Assembly: GCA_020854815.1 (NCBI GenBank)
Contig: JAHKLW010000043.1
Span: 3,170 to 67,169 of the forward strand
DNA: 64,000 nucleotides
DNA from: Methanofastidiosum sp.
GTDB taxonomy: Archaea > Methanobacteriota_B > Thermococci > Methanofastidiosales > Methanofastidiosaceae
Direction: 5' to 3'
Part shown: piece by piece, positions 4,636 to 37,704 of the stretch
How positions within the stretch are numbered: position 1 is the stretch's first letter
Layout: each line of letters opens with the position of its first letter
The notes under the pieces: model-generated
Told to the model about the DNA's origin: nothing
The model's database searches: none
The model's input: only the letters and a program-made list of their open reading frames with translations
Translations under genes and position numbers: made by a program

Positions 4636-4886
4636 TGAGCCTCTCCAAGGACGATTTGAGATCACTCAGGAGGTACCTCAAGAAGAACTGCCCAGGCCTT
4701 AAAATTACCACTGGCCGGGGTGGATGGCACAGGATGACCTACGTCAGGGGCTCTGGCGAGGGGCAGAAATTCACAGAAGAGGAAGTCCAATTCCTCACTA
4801 AGATAGGGCTTTTACCCTGCAGGAACTTCTCCAGCATTAATATGTTCCAGGCGGAAAAAATATTAGAGGAGGTGATTAGAGCATGA
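4635..4886 (+). CDS. Hypothetical protein (provirus)
   Basis: 83 aa. Overlaps the previous stop (ATGA coupling). Confidence 0.4.
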   Translation: MSLSKDDLRSLRRYLKKNCPGLKITTGRGGWHRMTYVRGSGEGQKFTEEEVQFLTKIGLLPCRNFSSINMFQAEKILEEVIRA

Positions 4887-5263
4887 GCATTGAAGAAGAT
4901 GCTATTAGGATAGTAAATGAGATGGTCAAGCAGATAGGAGATCTTGGAATACCTACACCCGATATGGTCCTTGACTGCTATACTAGAGTTTGGTCCACAA
5001 TGTACATCCAGAGCTCAAAGAACTGCTATGGCAATTCTGGCCCTAGAAATGAGGCCAAGCCAGTAACTCCAGGACCTGAAGATGACCCTATCGTTGCTGC
5101 ACTAAAGAGCATGGACGGATGGGGATATCCTGACAAGATTGCAAAGGCCCTGAATAGCACAGAGTCAGCCGTTGTCCCCCTGATAGAAAATGCACTTGCC
5201 AACGGTAAGATCTACCAGGCCAAGAAGGGCTACTATTCTTTGACTGACAAGCCTAAAAAGTAA
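4883..5263 (+). CDS. Hypothetical protein, possible wHTH C-terminus (provirus)
   Basis: 126 aa. Coupled to the previous ORF and convergent with the terminase gene. Confidence 0.4.
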   Translation: MSIEEDAIRIVNEMVKQIGDLGIPTPDMVLDCYTRVWSTMYIQSSKNCYGNSGPRNEAKPVTPGPEDDPIVAALKSMDGWGYPDKIAKALNSTESAVVPLIENALANGKIYQAKKGYYSLTDKPKK

Positions 5264-32283: not shown

Positions 32284-33396
32284 TTATAATTTTTCAAATC
32301 TCTTTTCAAGTTCTCTTAGAACTTTAGGAAGAGTTGTGTATTCCATATCTTCACATGGTAATCTGTGTGGTTCAAATGGCCCATGCCGTCTCATATAGTC
32401 AGCGACTCTTTGTGCTTTTCTTCTAGCTTCATCATATGCAGGATCGTCAAATAGATCAACTGGCCCAACTAGTTTTCCGTTTGCTATCTGAAATCCAAGG
32501 GCTATAACTCTTGGAGGCCCATCAAATCTAGTACATACTGCATTCTTTTGACTAACTGGCATTATTGGGCCGTTGTGAGACCCTCTCATCCAGCCGGCCA
32601 CTAAGTGGGGGAATGCGAAAGGCTCGAGTATTTCGCCAACTGCAGGAAGACCTGATTGCCCCCTTACCAGTGCCACAGGATCATCTTTTCCCACATAATC
32701 TCCAGCTATCTTGTAAAGCTTTTCAGTGCTGATGTTTGCAACTGCTTCGTCAGCAGGTAATTTTCCACCTTTTTTTGGATAAACTCTTTTTATTACATAT
32801 CTCGATTTGGCACCAATCAAAGCAAGCATTTTGTATAGCTCTTCTGGACAATCCATGAATACTCTCTTACTTTCTAAGATATCCCATATCTCGAATCTAA
32901 ATCCTGCTGCTGCACTTGGGTCTATTACTAACCCTATTGTGTTAAAAGGGTCTGCAAATATCTTATATATCGGTAAATTAAAGGCCCCAGGATCAGTCTT
33001 GTCCATCATAAATGCAATAACTGGCTCTGCTTTTCTTTCTTCAAATTCGAGTTCTGCAATTCCAGGACCCAACCCTCTAACATTTCCGCTAAATGCATCA
33101 GCTAATAGGTCTTGGCCTGCACCGTAAAGCTTCAATTCCCTAGCGACTTCTGTTGCTTTTTCAAAAGTATTCCACGCAAGATGATGAACTTCTTCAGAAT
33201 CAATACCTTTTCTATGTGTCATTAATAGTTCTAGATCGTCTCCACAATTTGTAACGTGGAAATCAATTAGAAGTTTACCTTTTTCTTTTTCTAATTCTTT
33301 TTGTGCTTTTTGAATTAAATCTGGATGAACCTTGGCATGGCCAGGCCATCCTCCAACATCTGCTTTAATAAGAGAAACAGTTATTTTTTCTCCCAT
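32284..33396 (-). CDS. fbp: Fructose-1,6-bisphosphate aldolase/phosphatase (class V FBPase)
   Basis: N-terminus ITVSLIKADVGGWPGH...HPDLI. Confidence 0.9.
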   Translation of the reverse strand: MGEKITVSLIKADVGGWPGHAKVHPDLIQKAQKELEKEKGKLLIDFHVTNCGDDLELLMTHRKGIDSEEVHHLAWNTFEKATEVARELKLYGAGQDLLADAFSGNVRGLGPGIAELEFEERKAEPVIAFMMDKTDPGAFNLPIYKIFADPFNTIGLVIDPSAAAGFRFEIWDILESKRVFMDCPEELYKMLALIGAKSRYVIKRVYPKKGGKLPADEAVANISTEKLYKIAGDYVGKDDPVALVRGQSGLPAVGEILEPFAFPHLVAGWMRGSHNGPIMPVSQKNAVCTRFDGPPRVIALGFQIANGKLVGPVDLFDDPAYDEARRKAQRVADYMRRHGPFEPHRLPCEDMEYTTLPKVLRELEKRFEKL

Positions 33397-34005
33397 TTAA
33401 TCCTCCTCGTCTTTTGATTTGAAATCATCAATTGAGAATGGAGGTTCTTCACCGTCTTTTATCTGACCTTTAGCTTTCATCATTTCTCTGGCAATAAGGT
33501 AGTAAACAAGCGCTAAGGCTTTTTTACCTTTGTTATTTGTTGGTACAACTAAATCAACGTTTGACAGATAATTTTCAGAGTCGCATAGTGCAACTACAGG
33601 TATTTTTGCAAGGCCGGCTTCCCTTAGTATCTGATAATCTGCTCTTGGATCTGTCAAGATTACTACTTCAGGCTCCATAAAATCTTCACAGTTTGGATTT
33701 GTTAGAGATCCTGGAATAAATCTCTTTGTAATTGTTTTTGCGCCTATTTTCTGACCAAAAGCTAATACTGGTTTAAATCCATAGATTCTTGAAGAAACTA
33801 CTAGAATTTTCTCTGGCTCAAATTTAGCAAGAAACTTCCCAACTTTTTCAATCTTCTTATTTGTTTCGTTTATATCAAGGATATATAGACCATCTTGTCT
33901 TATCCTAAATATGTACCTTTCCATGTCCCTTGTTTTTTGAGTTGTCCCAATATGTATTCCTGATGCAAGGTACAAATCAAGAGGTACAAGCATTTCATCA
34001 CTCAT
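33397..34005 (-). CDS. rps2: 30S ribosomal protein S2
   Basis: LASGIHIGT...DGLYILDI...VLAFGQKIG pattern. Confidence 0.9.
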   Translation of the reverse strand: MSDEMLVPLDLYLASGIHIGTTQKTRDMERYIFRIRQDGLYILDINETNKKIEKVGKFLAKFEPEKILVVSSRIYGFKPVLAFGQKIGAKTITKRFIPGSLTNPNCEDFMEPEVVILTDPRADYQILREAGLAKIPVVALCDSENYLSNVDLVVPTNNKGKKALALVYYLIAREMMKAKGQIKDGEEPPFSIDDFKSKDEED

Positions 34006-34604
34006 TAAATCTCCTCTCCCAAATATTCTTTAATTCTTATTAGTTCATTTATTATTTGGATATTATCTTCCATTAATTCCAAATATCTAAGATTAAATGC
34101 TAGAGATATATGACATATCCCTTCATCAACTGCAGAGATTATGCAGTTCTTATCATCTTTTGATGCAGCATAAATATTAGATATTGTATCTAGCTCAATT
34201 TTTTTTGGTTTTTGATTGTTTTTTAACTCTTTTAGATCGAAGTTAAATATTTTTCCCCCTATATTCAATAGAGGCATTTGCCCCTCGTATATGCCTCCAA
34301 GATATCTAAAAAGAGGTAACGAATAAAAAGAAGATGCTGCTTTGGCAGATGCCAAAGATAAAGCGAATCTTATTTGAGTATAGGGCGTTATTTCGCAAAG
34401 CAACTCATCTAGTGATTTTTGTTCAATTGCATCCAATCCTATGAGTTCCGGTAAAACAACTTCTTCTATCTCAGAGATTTCTTCTTCAAAAGGCACAGAG
34501 GCTCTCCCAAAACTTGAAGAGGTATATACATCTATTTCTACTATACTCTTCTCTTTATTGCTGTTGTAAACCTTCCTTGCCCTTATATCCTCTATTACGG
34601 TCAA
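34005..34604 (-). CDS. Enolase N-terminal-domain-only protein (truncated, non-catalytic enolase paralog or remnant)
   Basis: IEDIRARKVYNSNKEKSIVEIDVYT..FGRASVP resembles I..V.AREILDSRGNPTVEV.V....GRA.VPSGAS. ALSLASAKAASSFYSLPLFRYLGG resembles enolase LAVAKAAA..LGIPLYRYLGG. Only 199 aa, and rps2 starts at its stop. Confidence 0.6.
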   Translation of the reverse strand: MTVIEDIRARKVYNSNKEKSIVEIDVYTSSSFGRASVPFEEEISEIEEVVLPELIGLDAIEQKSLDELLCEITPYTQIRFALSLASAKAASSFYSLPLFRYLGGIYEGQMPLLNIGGKIFNFDLKELKNNQKPKKIELDTISNIYAASKDDKNCIISAVDEGICHISLAFNLRYLELMEDNIQIINELIRIKEYLGEEI

Positions 34605-34630
34605 TATTTCCTCTCCTTCTCCATTTCCTA

Positions 34631-34708
34631 TGGTGGGGCCGTCGGGATTTGAACCCGAGTTTCCACCACCCCAAGGTGAGAGGCTAGTCCAAGCTACCCC
34701 ACGGCCCC
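34631..34708 (-). tRNA. tRNA-Pro (anticodon GGG), CCA encoded
   Basis: Reverse complement GGGGCCG...anticodon loop TTGGGGT...T-arm TCGGGTTCAAATCCCGA...CGGCCCC ACCA. Long D-loop. Confidence 0.8.
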
Positions 34709-34743
34709 ATGTGAAATCGACTATAAACTATTAAAATATAAAA

Positions 34744-34938
34744 TTATATTTTATAGTCGAGCAGTTCATCTATAAGATCAACATGGGTAAGAAGCATTCT
34801 TCTGCAGCAATATCTGGTTAGTCCCATGTCGTCCAATATTTTTTCTGTTTTTTCCCCTTTGCTTACTCTAGCTAGATAAGGCTCATAAAGATGTCCAATC
34901 ACTTTTCCACAGGTAAAGCATCTTACAGGGATAATCAA
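34744..34938 (-). CDS. rpoN: DNA-directed RNA polymerase subunit N (Rpb10)
   Basis: [12 protein letters not shown]...RYCCRRM. Confidence 0.85.
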
Positions 34939-34942
34939 AAGA

Positions 34943-35347
34943 TCACCTGTAAGATTTCTGTCTTCTTGCTCTTGGTCCTTTAGAAGACTTACTTGGCTTG
35001 TGCTCTTCAGTTCTCCTTGAATCTCCCCTTAATAGGATTCTGTCGTATCCTAGATAAGCTTCTTTCAAAGAGTTATCCTGAGTGAATTCGACAAGACCTC
35101 TTGCGATTGCTATTCTGCATGCATCAGCTTGCCCCATAATTCCTCCACCTCGGACATCAATGTCAATATCAACTGTATTTGCTGTATCTCCTGCAAGGAG
35201 AATTGGTTCAAACATTTTGATTCTTACCAATTCAGGTTCAACTATGGGAAGCGGTTTGCTATTAATTCTGACTCTCCCCTTCCCTTCTTTTACAGTTGCC
35301 CTTGCAACAGCTTTTTTTCTTTTACCTACTGATTGAATAATTTTCAT
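34943..35347 (-). CDS. rps9: 30S ribosomal protein S9
   Basis: [19 protein letters not shown] and C-terminal RRQKSYR. Confidence 0.9.
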
Positions 35348-35769
35348 ACACGCCCCCCAAGGAAGGATGATATTTCTTTTACTCTAAAATATTTCTTAGT
35401 TCTTAATTTTGAAACATCAGCTTCGTTGAATCTAACGAATTCTTTTCCAGTTAAATCTTCAGGTATACCAACATATACCTTTAGTTTCTTGTATGCCTGT
35501 CTTCCTTTGTCTTTTTTCCAAGGTAACATTCCCCTTACTGCCCTTCTGACTATTCTGTCAGATCTTTTTGGGAAAAATGAACCTCTCAAAGGATTTGCGA
35601 TATCTTTGAATTGTGCTCTTTTCTTGTAAAGGTCAAAGAAATAATCCCTATTCCCCGTAATTATAACTTCTTCAGCATTGACTATATAAATTTCTTCCCC
35701 TTCTAAAAGTTTTTTAGCAGCAACTGATGCCATTCTGCCCAGAATCTGATCTTTTCCATCGATTATCAT
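35344..35769 (-). CDS. rpl13: 50S ribosomal protein L13
   Basis: [32 protein letters not shown]. Confidence 0.9.
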
Positions 35770-35773
35770 GAGA

Positions 35774-36142
35774 TCACTCCATTATCCTTACACCGCTACC
35801 TCTCGGATTCTCTTTGTAAAGGTCATAAAGAGTTATTGCTCTTCCATTTTTGTTTATCTTTTCCATGGCGGATTTAGAAAACTTGAATGCAGAAATTGTA
35901 ACTTTATGATCTAGTTCTCCACTGCCCAATACTTTTCCGGGAACAACTACTGTGTCTCCATCTTGTGAATATCTATTGATTTTTGATAAATTCACTTGGG
36001 GTAAATGCCTTGTAGGCCTTTTGAACCTCTTAGAAAGGTCAATCCACAAGGGAGTTTTTTCAGAATATCCTTTGTCTATAAAAAAATCTATAAGACTTAA
36101 TATATTTGGATTTGTTTTATTCAATTTTTTCATTAGTTTCAC
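35774..36142 (-). CDS. rpl18e: 50S ribosomal protein L18e
   Basis: Size and sequence pattern, and conserved position upstream of L13/S9/RpoN. Confidence 0.8.
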   Translation of the reverse strand: MKLMKKLNKTNPNILSLIDFFIDKGYSEKTPLWIDLSKRFKRPTRHLPQVNLSKINRYSQDGDTVVVPGKVLGSGELDHKVTISAFKFSKSAMEKINKNGRAITLYDLYKENPRGSGVRIME

Positions 36143-36267: not shown

Positions 36268-37422
36268 TTATCTTTTCCAGATTGGATTTAGAATAGAAGG
36301 AAGTTCAGTATCGTATCCAAGATCTTTTAAAGCCATTTGAAGACAGGCCATAGTAACTATTATTTCCTTTTCCGAAACACTTCCCATGTGTCCAATTCTA
36401 ATTATCTTCCCTTTAAGATGGTCTTGTCCACCAGCTATTATCACGCCGTACTTTTCTCTCATTGTTTTAACGAGTTCTTGTCCATCAATTCCTTCTGGAA
36501 CTTTAATAGATGTGACTGTGTTTGAACATGTCTTTTCTTCCTGGGGAAATAATTTAAGGCCTATGGATTTTGCAGCTTCTCTTGTTGCCTTAGCCATTTT
36601 TTCATGTTTTTTGATCCAGTTGTCAAATCCGCATTCATCTATTATATCCAATGCTTCTTTTAATCCGTAAGCCATCGATACAGGTTGAGTGTATGGAGCC
36701 TTGTATTTGTTATTTTTATATTTCTTCAGGTTAAGATAGTAGCATGTTTCGTCAGTTTTTTCAATTATATCCCAAGCCTTCTGGCTAACGGAGATAAATG
36801 ACATCCCTGGGGGGAGTCCGATACACTTCTGGCTACCCGATGCACATAGATCAACTCCCCAATTATCAACTTCAATATTGTCTCCACCAAGTGATGAAAT
36901 AGTATCTACAACTAATAGAGCATTACTACCCTTTACAATCTTTCCAATGTCTGCTACTGGGTTTCTAACTCCTGTGGAGGTTTCATTGTGTACCATTGTT
37001 ACTGCCTTGATGGCCGGGTCTTTTTCTAATGCTTTTTTAACATCTTCTGTCTTTATAGGCATTCCCCAGTCATATTTTAATTCAATTACAGCTCCCTTGT
37101 AAGCCTTGACAATGTCTCTAAATCGCTCTCCAAACTTACCTGATGTAATACATAAGACCTTGTCTCCTGGTTGAACAATGTTAGCTATTGCAGCGTCCAT
37201 TGCAGCTGTACCAGAACCGGCAATTATAAAAACATCATTTTTAGTTTTAAAGATTTTTTTCATTCTTTCGGATTGCTCCATAAAGAGCTTGTTAAATTCA
37301 TCGCTTCTATGGGGCATGATTTTCATTGACATGGCCCTAAATACCCTAGGGTGAACTGGTATCGGACCAGGTATCATTAGTAAAAAATCCTCATTCATAT
37401 AACCACGACACTGTTTTAACAA
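36268..37422 (-). CDS. Class V PLP-dependent aminotransferase (serine-pyruvate/alanine-glyoxylate family)
   Basis: LLMIPGP N-terminus and PLP-lysine SGSQKCIGLPPG. Likely start at MNEDF, about 37398. Confidence 0.8.
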   Translation of the reverse strand: MLKQCRGYMNEDFLLMIPGPIPVHPRVFRAMSMKIMPHRSDEFNKLFMEQSERMKKIFKTKNDVFIIAGSGTAAMDAAIANIVQPGDKVLCITSGKFGERFRDIVKAYKGAVIELKYDWGMPIKTEDVKKALEKDPAIKAVTMVHNETSTGVRNPVADIGKIVKGSNALLVVDTISSLGGDNIEVDNWGVDLCASGSQKCIGLPPGMSFISVSQKAWDIIEKTDETCYYLNLKKYKNNKYKAPYTQPVSMAYGLKEALDIIDECGFDNWIKKHEKMAKATREAAKSIGLKLFPQEEKTCSNTVTSIKVPEGIDGQELVKTMREKYGVIIAGGQDHLKGKIIRIGHMGSVSEKEIIVTMACLQMALKDLGYDTELPSILNPIWKR

Positions 37423-37506
37423 AAATAAACATATATAAGATTATCTTATCTAACTGTAAATTAAAAGTGTTAGAATAGAATAAATCTCAAGAAGATTAAA
37501 ACAAAA

Positions 37507-37704
37507 TTACATTATTTCTTTGTGTGTCATTAGTCTTGTTGTGTAACCTGCGATTCTATTCAAAAGTTTATGTGTAGGTACATCGAGTAAGTCTTTAATT
37601 ACTAATTTGTTCTCTTCAAAATCTTTTGTAAGTTCGCCTCTGTGTTTTTCAACTAACTGTCTTGAAATTCTTTTTATAAATGATGGTCTGATTCTTCCCA
37701 ACAT
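37507..37704 (-). CDS. rps17e: 30S ribosomal protein S17e
   Basis: MLGRIRPSFIKRISRQLVEKH...NRIAGYTTRLM. Confidence 0.85.
   Translation of the reverse strand: MLGRIRPSFIKRISRQLVEKHRGELTKDFEENKLVIKDLLDVPTHKLLNRIAGYTTRLMTHKEIM

Follow-up and report, generated by a model that had tools for sequence, protein, structure and literature searches.

The gene in the enolase slot of the ribosomal superoperon of Methanofastidiosum sp. (GenBank assembly GCA_020854815.1, contig JAHKLW010000043.1; the whole 64,000-nucleotide stretch analysed is referred to here as the window) encodes a protein of only 199 amino acids (aa), which we term mini-enolase. In Methanofastidiosum, this gene is probably the ortholog of the superoperon's in-situ enolase paralog; its product is further minimised, non-catalytic and kept as a likely dimeric protein-binding module. 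All Thermococci and Methanococci, plus a few other archaea, possess two enolase paralogs (Makarova, Wolf and Koonin 2015, PMC4390880). The superoperon copy adjoins Rpo6 and S2, evolves fast and has an inferred ancillary role linked to ribosome biogenesis, and the other paralog is located elsewhere and retains its function in glycolysis (PMC4390880). The existence of a fast-evolving, presumably non-glycolytic in-situ paralog is already known; what is new is the removal of its barrel core and its occurrence in Methanofastidiosia. Mini-enolase is the smallest form of the superoperon enolase paralog yet seen. The gene and its parts are as follows.

34005..34604, minus strand: mini-enolase open reading frame (ORF), 199 aa, 22.6 kDa, isoelectric point (pI) 4.65 (ORF list and sequence)
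34602-34604 and 34005-34007, minus strand: TTG start codon and TAA stop codon (sequence)
34281..34604, minus strand: aa 1-108, N-terminal (capping) domain of three strands and four helices (hhalign, alignments and AlphaFold2 (AF2))
34206..34280, minus strand: aa 109-133, barrel strand β1 (MPLLNIGG, matching LPVPMMNIINGG) and a poorly conserved linker (alignments)
34008..34205, minus strand: aa 134-199, barrel remnant β6-α6-β7-α7-β8-α8 (hhalign, HMMER and AF2)

The first-pass annotation, made from the sequence alone, had described a gene of only 199 aa in the conserved enolase slot, similar to the N-terminal domain of enolase, without a TIM-barrel half, with rps2 beginning at its stop codon and with no other enolase in the window. 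Most of this is borne out. The ORF is unbroken, and its TTG, the first start codon past an in-frame stop, is preceded by a Shine-Dalgarno sequence. The gene lies between rpoN, which is followed by tRNA-Pro, and rps2. Its TAA shares one base with the ATG of rps2 (TAATG), an overlap that leaves no possibility of a frameshifted remainder downstream. Searching the 64-kb window by tblastn with enolase fragments matched only the mini-enolase locus. Profile searches also support the N-terminal similarity. Pfam Enolase_N (PF03952) matches with 42.7 bits, above its cutoff of 35 (E-value 7.6e-11), with the best stretch covering only profile positions 64-131, and aligning the mini-enolase family profile with a canonical enolase profile matches residues 1-112 (hhalign 99.5%, E-value 5e-23). 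The GRASVP motif is located at aa 33-38 and ASAKAAS..LPLFRYLGG at aa 85-104. Identity to canonical enolases amounts to 29-37% over aligned columns, and the N-terminal domain lacks ~25 aa of the active-site loop L1 (SGASTG..EA..RD..GKGV) as well as 7 aa before helix 3.

The protein is not, as had been proposed, reduced to this domain, as aa ~134-199 derive from the end of the barrel (β6-α8). The statement that the TIM-barrel half is missing holds for the catalytic core, which is gone, and Pfam finds no Enolase_C (PF00113) match even at E<=1, but the last three β-α units remain. Between the two ends, the linker stands in for ~190 aa of barrel core, from just after β1 to β6. Landmarks of the C-terminal remnant are LDT(I/L)S, V(D/E)(E/D)GxCH and INELIRIKEYLG, and it ends in a conserved NELIRIxExLG helix; neither the SHRSGETED loop nor the IKTG lysine is left. 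With a profile built from the final 74 aa only, aa 160-197 align with enolase residues 370-411 (α7-β8-α8; hhalign 93.8%, E-value 1.8e-7). HMMER against the enolases of the PDB yields a weak extra (third) domain that pairs aa 139-197 with enolase 348-415, and tblastn with two unrelated enolases also matches the mini-enolase tail to the enolase C-terminus. Moreover, the family profile is collinear with a 341-aa Thermococcales protein (P0036), residues 1-197 aligning to 1-332 over 195 columns (98.9%, E-value 1.4e-17) with one large central gap, and a multiple alignment with 12 Thermococcales proteins gives the same picture. These comparisons indicate that mini-enolase arose by internal deletions of loop L1 and of the catalytic barrel core, and not by C-terminal truncation. 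The possibility that the gene is split and that another site encodes the barrel core was rejected, both enolase ends being encoded in one continuous frame. MAFFT without intermediates set residues 113-162 against β1-β2 and the GDEGG loop; this placement was dropped for the β6-β7 assignment because of the hhalign match to P0036, the Thermococcales-bridged alignment and the predicted (β-α)x3 order. Taken alone, residues 113-162 gave no significant match to canonical enolase in hhalign of the tail profile.

Twelve positions with roles established by enolase enzymology were mapped onto the protein (yeast numbering: S39, H159, E168, E211, D246, E295, D320, K345, H373, R374, S375 and K396). Of these 12 catalytic, metal and substrate positions, ten are lost to the deletions and K396 has become Glu. 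All three Mg2+ ligands (D246, E295 and D320) fall inside the deleted segment. In the catalytic and substrate set of nine residues, seven are deleted, K396 is Glu, and K345 aligns with K134, a position at which the window protein has Lys but the family clusters P0033 and P0034 have Arg or Ile. The score on the eno equivalog model TIGR01060 (EC 4.2.1.11), 46 bits, lies below its cutoff of 300. Because its catalytic, metal and substrate residues are deleted or replaced, mini-enolase can neither bind Mg2+, 2-phosphoglycerate or phosphoenolpyruvate (PEP) nor catalyse the enolase reaction. Should the organism use enolase in glycolysis or gluconeogenesis, another gene would have to supply that activity.

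AF2 prediction with Thermococcales homologues in the alignment produced a model with a mean predicted local distance difference test score (pLDDT) of 90.3 and a predicted template modelling score of 0.89, on which all five models agree. The N-terminal domain (aa 1-108) has pLDDT values of mostly 90-98, with 70 for residues 11-20. The predicted order is three strands and four helices, two short strands and three strand-helix units, the last long helix spanning residues 182-198. Comparing the model with the PDB by Foldseek returns enolases as top matches, and several of the alignments span the whole chain over ~390-410 columns, with query-normalised template modelling scores of 0.77-0.78. In the predicted structure, both ends of mini-enolase are placed as in enolase. 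The model is that of a monomer and depends on the homologues in its alignment; a model built from 14 family sequences only had pLDDT values below 50 at residues 160-199 and was discarded for the C-terminal part.

The short form is widely shared among relatives. Clustering at 90% identity gives 16 clusters (members 81-89% identical, 199-221 aa) drawn from NCBI, ENA, JGI and Logan, on contigs of up to 1.44 Mb, and the nearest homologues belong to Candidatus Methanofastidiosum / Methanofastidiosa. Searched exhaustively with HMMER, 1.84 billion representatives yielded three 50%-identity clusters in the family (P0010, P0033 and P0034). Two divergent lineages, 41-46% identical and 191-197 aa long, retain the same order L18e-L13-S9-rpoN-tRNA-Pro-[gene]-S2, and 51 columns are invariant across mini-enolase members down to 42% identity. 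The four Methanofastidiosum loci inspected have an identical gene order. The ratio of non-synonymous to synonymous substitution rates (dN/dS), calculated pairwise by the Nei-Gojobori method among these four loci, is approximate, dS being ~0.8-1.3 and near saturation, and unambiguous in direction:

mini-enolase, whole gene: dN/dS 0.07-0.10
mini-enolase, N-terminal domain: dN/dS 0.05-0.08
mini-enolase, linker (residues 113-135): dN/dS 0.12-0.44, the least constrained segment
mini-enolase, C-terminal remnant: dN/dS 0.06-0.15
L13: dN/dS 0.08-0.13
fructose-1,6-bisphosphate (FBP) aldolase/phosphatase: dN/dS 0.03-0.06
S2: dN/dS 0.01-0.03

Mini-enolase is under strong purifying selection and is neither a pseudogene nor a decaying gene.

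The best NCBIfam model for mini-enolase is NF006223/PRK08350 ("hypothetical protein"), on which it scores 74 bits, far below the cutoff of 624, against 46 bits on TIGR01060 eno. P0033 and P0034 likewise score higher on NF006223 than on eno. P0036 is a true member of NF006223 (641 bits), and its homologues are Thermococcus and Pyrococcus proteins of 341-346 aa annotated as "enolase-related protein", "enolase-like protein" or "hypothetical protein". Mini-enolase thus appears to be a reduced derivative of the NF006223 type and not a member of the model as defined. The Thermococcales enolase-related protein (NF006223/PRK08350, arCOG01170; for example in T. kodakarensis KOD1 and T. onnurineus; P0453, P0409), which appears to be the closest relative, occupies the same slot upstream of rps2, and in the P0036 locus (L085) the order reads S13-S4-S11-rpoD-L18e-L13-S9-(rpoN)-tRNA-Pro-rpoK-[341 aa]-S2. 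A position directly upstream of rps2 and downstream of rpoN/rpoK is found in the window, L001, L002, L089-L092 and L085. Mini-enolase also displays the accelerated evolution with loss of catalytic residues. Window and Thermococcales proteins are collinear end to end with 36-41% identity over aligned columns, and both are acidic and have lost the catalytic and metal residues. In their tails, DExxxH and INELIRIxEDLG are common to both, whereas LGTLTDLY of the Thermococcales protein reads LDTISNIY in the window protein. Compared with its Thermococcales counterpart, the window protein lacks ~130 more aa of degenerate barrel, 11 more aa of the loop-L1 region and a 9-aa vestige of the SHRSGETED loop. 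In Thermococcales, rpoK lies between tRNA-Pro and the gene, which is not the case in the window. Likeness to canonical enolase (TIGR01060; M. jannaschii, PDB 2PA6) comprises the N-terminal domain, the first barrel strand and the C-terminal α7-β8-α8; the residues at dimer salt-bridge positions are kept and the predicted three-dimensional arrangement superposes. Unlike canonical enolase, the window protein lacks the barrel core, the Mg2+ ligands, the catalytic Lys/Glu pair and the substrate-binding loop.

Reduction of the in-situ enolase copy is recurrent. Halobacteriota metagenome-assembled genomes (MAGs) encode degenerate 362-aa proteins (P0035, P0038) in the same slot, between rpoN/tRNA-Pro/rpoK and rps2; like the window protein, they have the loop-L1 and 7-aa N-domain deletions and have lost H373, R374 and S375. 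These proteins and a degenerate 314-aa form from Methanocaldococcus (P0047, WP_048202519) keep most of the barrel and part of the metal ligands, and score higher on eno than on NF006223. The Methanocaldococcus form was seen on a single contig that is too short to show its slot. Full-length enolases fill the slot in Bathyarchaeota and Methanoregula genomes. The best full-length match (P0039, 418 aa) is catalytically intact, and no S2 match lies near it on its 5-kb contig; it does not point to a full-length precursor in the slot. The same architecture with an excised barrel core is found in mini-enolases of 211-271 aa from bacterial contexts (P0041, P0042, P0049, P0059, P0071, P0086, P0162 and others). 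The three tested (P0041, P0049 and P0086) have better scores on canonical enolase than on PRK08350, and the three loci inspected (L094-L096) have non-ribosomal, bacterial-looking neighbourhoods. It seems that such proteins arose repeatedly and independently, by deletions inside enolase. Neighbours in L094-L096 include MetRS/TatD/radical-SAM genes; UDG, class II FBP aldolase and UvrA; and thioredoxin genes. Further scattered mini-enolases of this architecture are P0048, P0102 and P0114. Short 'enolases' P0037, P0045, P0046, P0050 and P0152 looked at first like further truncated forms and were dropped, as their junk-like tails point to frameshifted pieces of normal enolases. We found no paper in the searchable literature that pairs Methanofastidiosa with enolase, and none on 'enolase-like' with Thermococcales or on 'enolase-related protein' with Thermococcus.

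We propose that mini-enolase, a small and acidic protein without enzymatic activity, would serve to bind other proteins. The S. aureus enolase dimer is built by β1-β3, α5 and α12, which is the C-terminal helix (PMC4667285). Two of these three dimer elements are retained in mini-enolase, namely the N-terminal β1-β3 sheet and the C-terminal helix. Residues R10, E23, R190 and E193 align with R8, E20, R414 and E417 of yeast enolase and are invariant in the mini-enolase family and in the Thermococcales proteins. With two dimer elements and four salt-bridge residues retained, mini-enolase would most likely still dimerise. Its net charge of -12 (pI 4.65) points to a protein partner rather than RNA and makes direct RNA binding unlikely. 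By analogy, the partner held at the enolase-type inter-protomer surface may come from the machinery of translation or RNA processing, and mini-enolase would be made in step with S2. To our knowledge, RNase E of the E. coli type is absent from archaea. In E. coli, enolase is recruited to the RNA degradosome by a microdomain of RNase E, which sits in the inter-protomer groove of the enolase dimer and makes no contact with the active site (PMC2935283). The degradosome enolase is a precedent for a catalysis-independent scaffold and has been invoked for the proposed link of archaeal in-situ enolases to the ribosome (PMC4390880). It is full-length and active, unlike mini-enolase, and the comparison concerns the mode of working, not family membership.

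A canonical enolase is expected elsewhere in the genome because a gene for the gluconeogenic FBP aldolase/phosphatase adjoins, and its absence would be remarkable. An M. jannaschii enolase query, rebuilt from a PDB alignment, gave Methanococcales, Thermococcales, Thermoprotei/Thermofilum and sequences without a name as its best 120 matches, and cluster look-ups of ten such candidates returned only Thermofilum/Thermoprotei names.

Several points weigh against the reading of mini-enolase as a minimised, dimeric in-situ paralog. Orthology to that paralog is argued from position and from the collinear profile alignment, the homology of residues 113-162 hinges on the Thermococcales bridge, with MAFFT alone placing them elsewhere, and the NF006223 score falls short of membership. 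P0035 equals the Thermococcales protein in score on the family profile and shares the loop deletions, so descent specifically from a Thermococcales-type ancestor is not proven. Dimer element α5 is deleted, and the inter-subunit salt bridges of yeast enolase are presumed to be R8-E417 and E20-R414. The dN/dS values are affected by the near-saturation of dS. Finally, scanning genome contigs with family patterns (LPL[FY][RQ]YLGG, INELIRIK) found canonical enolases of other phyla and no Methanofastidiosales among the matches listed.

The alternatives are less convincing. The first-pass annotation had left a choice between a retained non-catalytic protein and a recently decayed gene. A decaying pseudogene or functionless fragment would fit a protein that has lost every catalytic residue and more than half of its ancestral length, but is very improbable: the ORF is intact, its start, Shine-Dalgarno sequence and stop overlap are kept in all loci, and a compact fold is predicted with confidence. 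Decay fails above all because dN/dS is low in both halves, comparable to that of L13, and because the short form persists at the same locus at 41-46% identity. Enolase origin, loss of the catalytic residues and purifying selection speak for the first option, a retained non-catalytic protein. An assembly or sequencing artefact, in which a segment would be missing from a normal enolase gene, was the other explanation raised at the outset, and the short length alone favours it. It can be regarded as excluded because more than 16 independent assemblies share the short gene. The 199-aa architecture recurs in 16 clusters from four sources, four loci agree in gene order, and two deletions plus many substitutions, not a single gap, separate the gene from enolase. 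Orthologous loci in relatives carry the same short gene at the same place. Quite improbable, though of a different order from these two, is an independent recent reduction from an active full-length in-situ enolase within Methanofastidiosia, which would make the Thermococcales likeness a convergent relaxation. The degenerate in-situ enolases of Halobacteriota MAGs (362 aa) and the Methanocaldococcus form (314 aa) are in line with it, as are the bacterial-context mini-enolases, which show that reduction is recurrent, the equal family-profile match of P0035 and P0036, and the position of Methanofastidiosia outside Thermococci in NCBI taxonomy. However, the window protein and both distant lineages score higher on NF006223 than on eno, whereas eno gives the higher score for the Halobacteriota and bacterial forms. 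The collinear alignment with the Thermococcales protein at 36-41% identity and the tRNA-Pro/S2 context common with Thermococcales also argue for shared ancestry with the Thermococcales-type paralog.

A functional alternative, which we consider rather unlikely, is a regulatory decoy: mini-enolase would heterodimerise with canonical enolase and inhibit it or tether it to the translation machinery, thereby coupling the lower part of glycolysis or gluconeogenesis to ribosome synthesis. Such pairing would fit the interface elements that mini-enolase has in common with canonical enolases (N-terminal sheet, C-terminal helix and four salt-bridge residues), and mini-enolase shares a unit with rps2 and the gene for the gluconeogenic FBP aldolase/phosphatase. 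Against it, no canonical enolase of this organism was located in the 64-kb window or among the matches listed elsewhere, α5 is missing, our literature search found no report of the Thermococcales 341-aa homolog binding canonical enolase, and the hypothesis is drawn purely from sequence. Two bolder readings go further: that mini-enolase is the minimal module of an ancient catalysis-independent role, as a dimeric adaptor and stable partner of the archaeal ribosome-biogenesis or RNA-processing machinery, and, more radical still, that Methanofastidiosales lack a canonical enolase altogether. We regard them as unlikely. If the second were true, gluconeogenesis would have to connect PEP and 2-phosphoglycerate by some other, undiscovered path, despite the FBP aldolase/phosphatase encoded in the same operon.

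The surroundings of the gene in the window, which has a G+C content of 35.8%, comprise the following features.

32284..33396, minus strand: fructose-1,6-bisphosphate aldolase/phosphatase, 370 aa (Pfam FBPase_3, E-value 8e-185)
33397..34005, minus strand: rps2, ribosomal protein S2, 202 aa (Pfam Ribosomal_S2, E-value 7e-22)
34610..34616, minus strand: Shine-Dalgarno sequence GGAGAGG, 5 nucleotides (nt) before the mini-enolase TTG (sequence)
34631..34708, minus strand: tRNA-Pro(GGG), between rpoN and mini-enolase (ARAGORN)
34728..34743, minus strand: TATA-like TTTTATATTTTAATAG, ~30 nt upstream of tRNA-Pro and directly after the rpoN stop
34744..34938, minus strand: rpoN, RNA polymerase subunit N/Rpo10, 64 aa, the upstream neighbour (Pfam RNA_pol_N, E-value 3e-32)
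34943..36142, minus strand: rps9, rpl13 and rpl18e, the upstream part of the ribosomal block (ORFs, tblastn synteny and Pfam labels of orthologous loci)

The TTG and the GGAGAGG are common to the four Methanofastidiosum loci (the window, L089, L090 and L092), and an intact frame, start, Shine-Dalgarno sequence and stop overlap are kept in all mini-enolase loci inspected. Public gene calls for P0010 (L089 10001-10063), P0004, P0007 and P0009 start 7-22 codons upstream, inside tRNA-Pro, and give proteins of 206-221 aa. The conserved TTG with GGAGAGG is likely the true start and the longer annotated versions are likely misplaced. As its stop overlaps the start of rps2, the arrangement suggests translational coupling of the two genes. 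The tRNA-Pro gene is in an identical position in L001, L002, L085, L086 and L089-L092. The gap from tRNA to ORF measures 16-32 nt across mini-enolase loci (window 34605-34743; L001, L002, L089-L092). Only 26 nt separate tRNA-Pro from the TTG in the window, which leaves no space for a promoter of mini-enolase's own. The TATA-like TTTTATATTTTAATAG is kept in the four Methanofastidiosum loci and absent from L001 and L002; it is a possible archaeal promoter, internal to the superoperon, for a unit of tRNA-Pro, mini-enolase, S2 and FBP aldolase/phosphatase. The FBP aldolase/phosphatase gene begins right after the rps2 stop, an adjacency also seen in L089, L090 and L092, and the gluconeogenic enzyme is thereby joined to the tRNA-Pro/mini-enolase/S2 unit. 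At that position L086, from a Halobacteriota MAG, has Memo, mevalonate kinase and isopentenyl phosphate kinase, as in other archaea.

The rpoK (Rpo6) gene, normally between rpoN/tRNA-Pro and the enolase slot, is missing there in all mini-enolase loci, and tblastn with a Thermococcales-type RpoK gave no match in the 64-kb window. It is at its usual place in L085, and in L086 an rpoK ORF missed by the gene caller is present at 4783-5000, between tRNA-Pro(CGG) and the 362-aa degenerate enolase. In the genus Methanofastidiosum (window 36268-37704, L089/L090/L092), the region upstream of rpl18e does not hold the S13-S4-S11-rpoD block. Its place is taken by a class-V aminotransferase gene and S17e, in L090/L091 also by a transglutaminase-like gene. 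The divergent mini-enolase lineage of L002 retains a contiguous S4-S11-rpoD-tRNA-Leu-L18e.

The finding overturns nothing. For annotation, it means that metabolic reconstructions of Methanofastidiosa should leave the mini-enolase gene out when they count enolases. Enolase has long been part of the archaeal ribosomal gene cluster. Mini-enolase can be seen as a natural deletion experiment, in which the parts needed for catalysis have been shed under strong selection and most of the canonical dimer surfaces have been kept. It narrows the search for the hidden role of the superoperon enolase to a module that is small and readily expressed, and it offers the smallest natural construct with which to learn what enolase does in that cluster.

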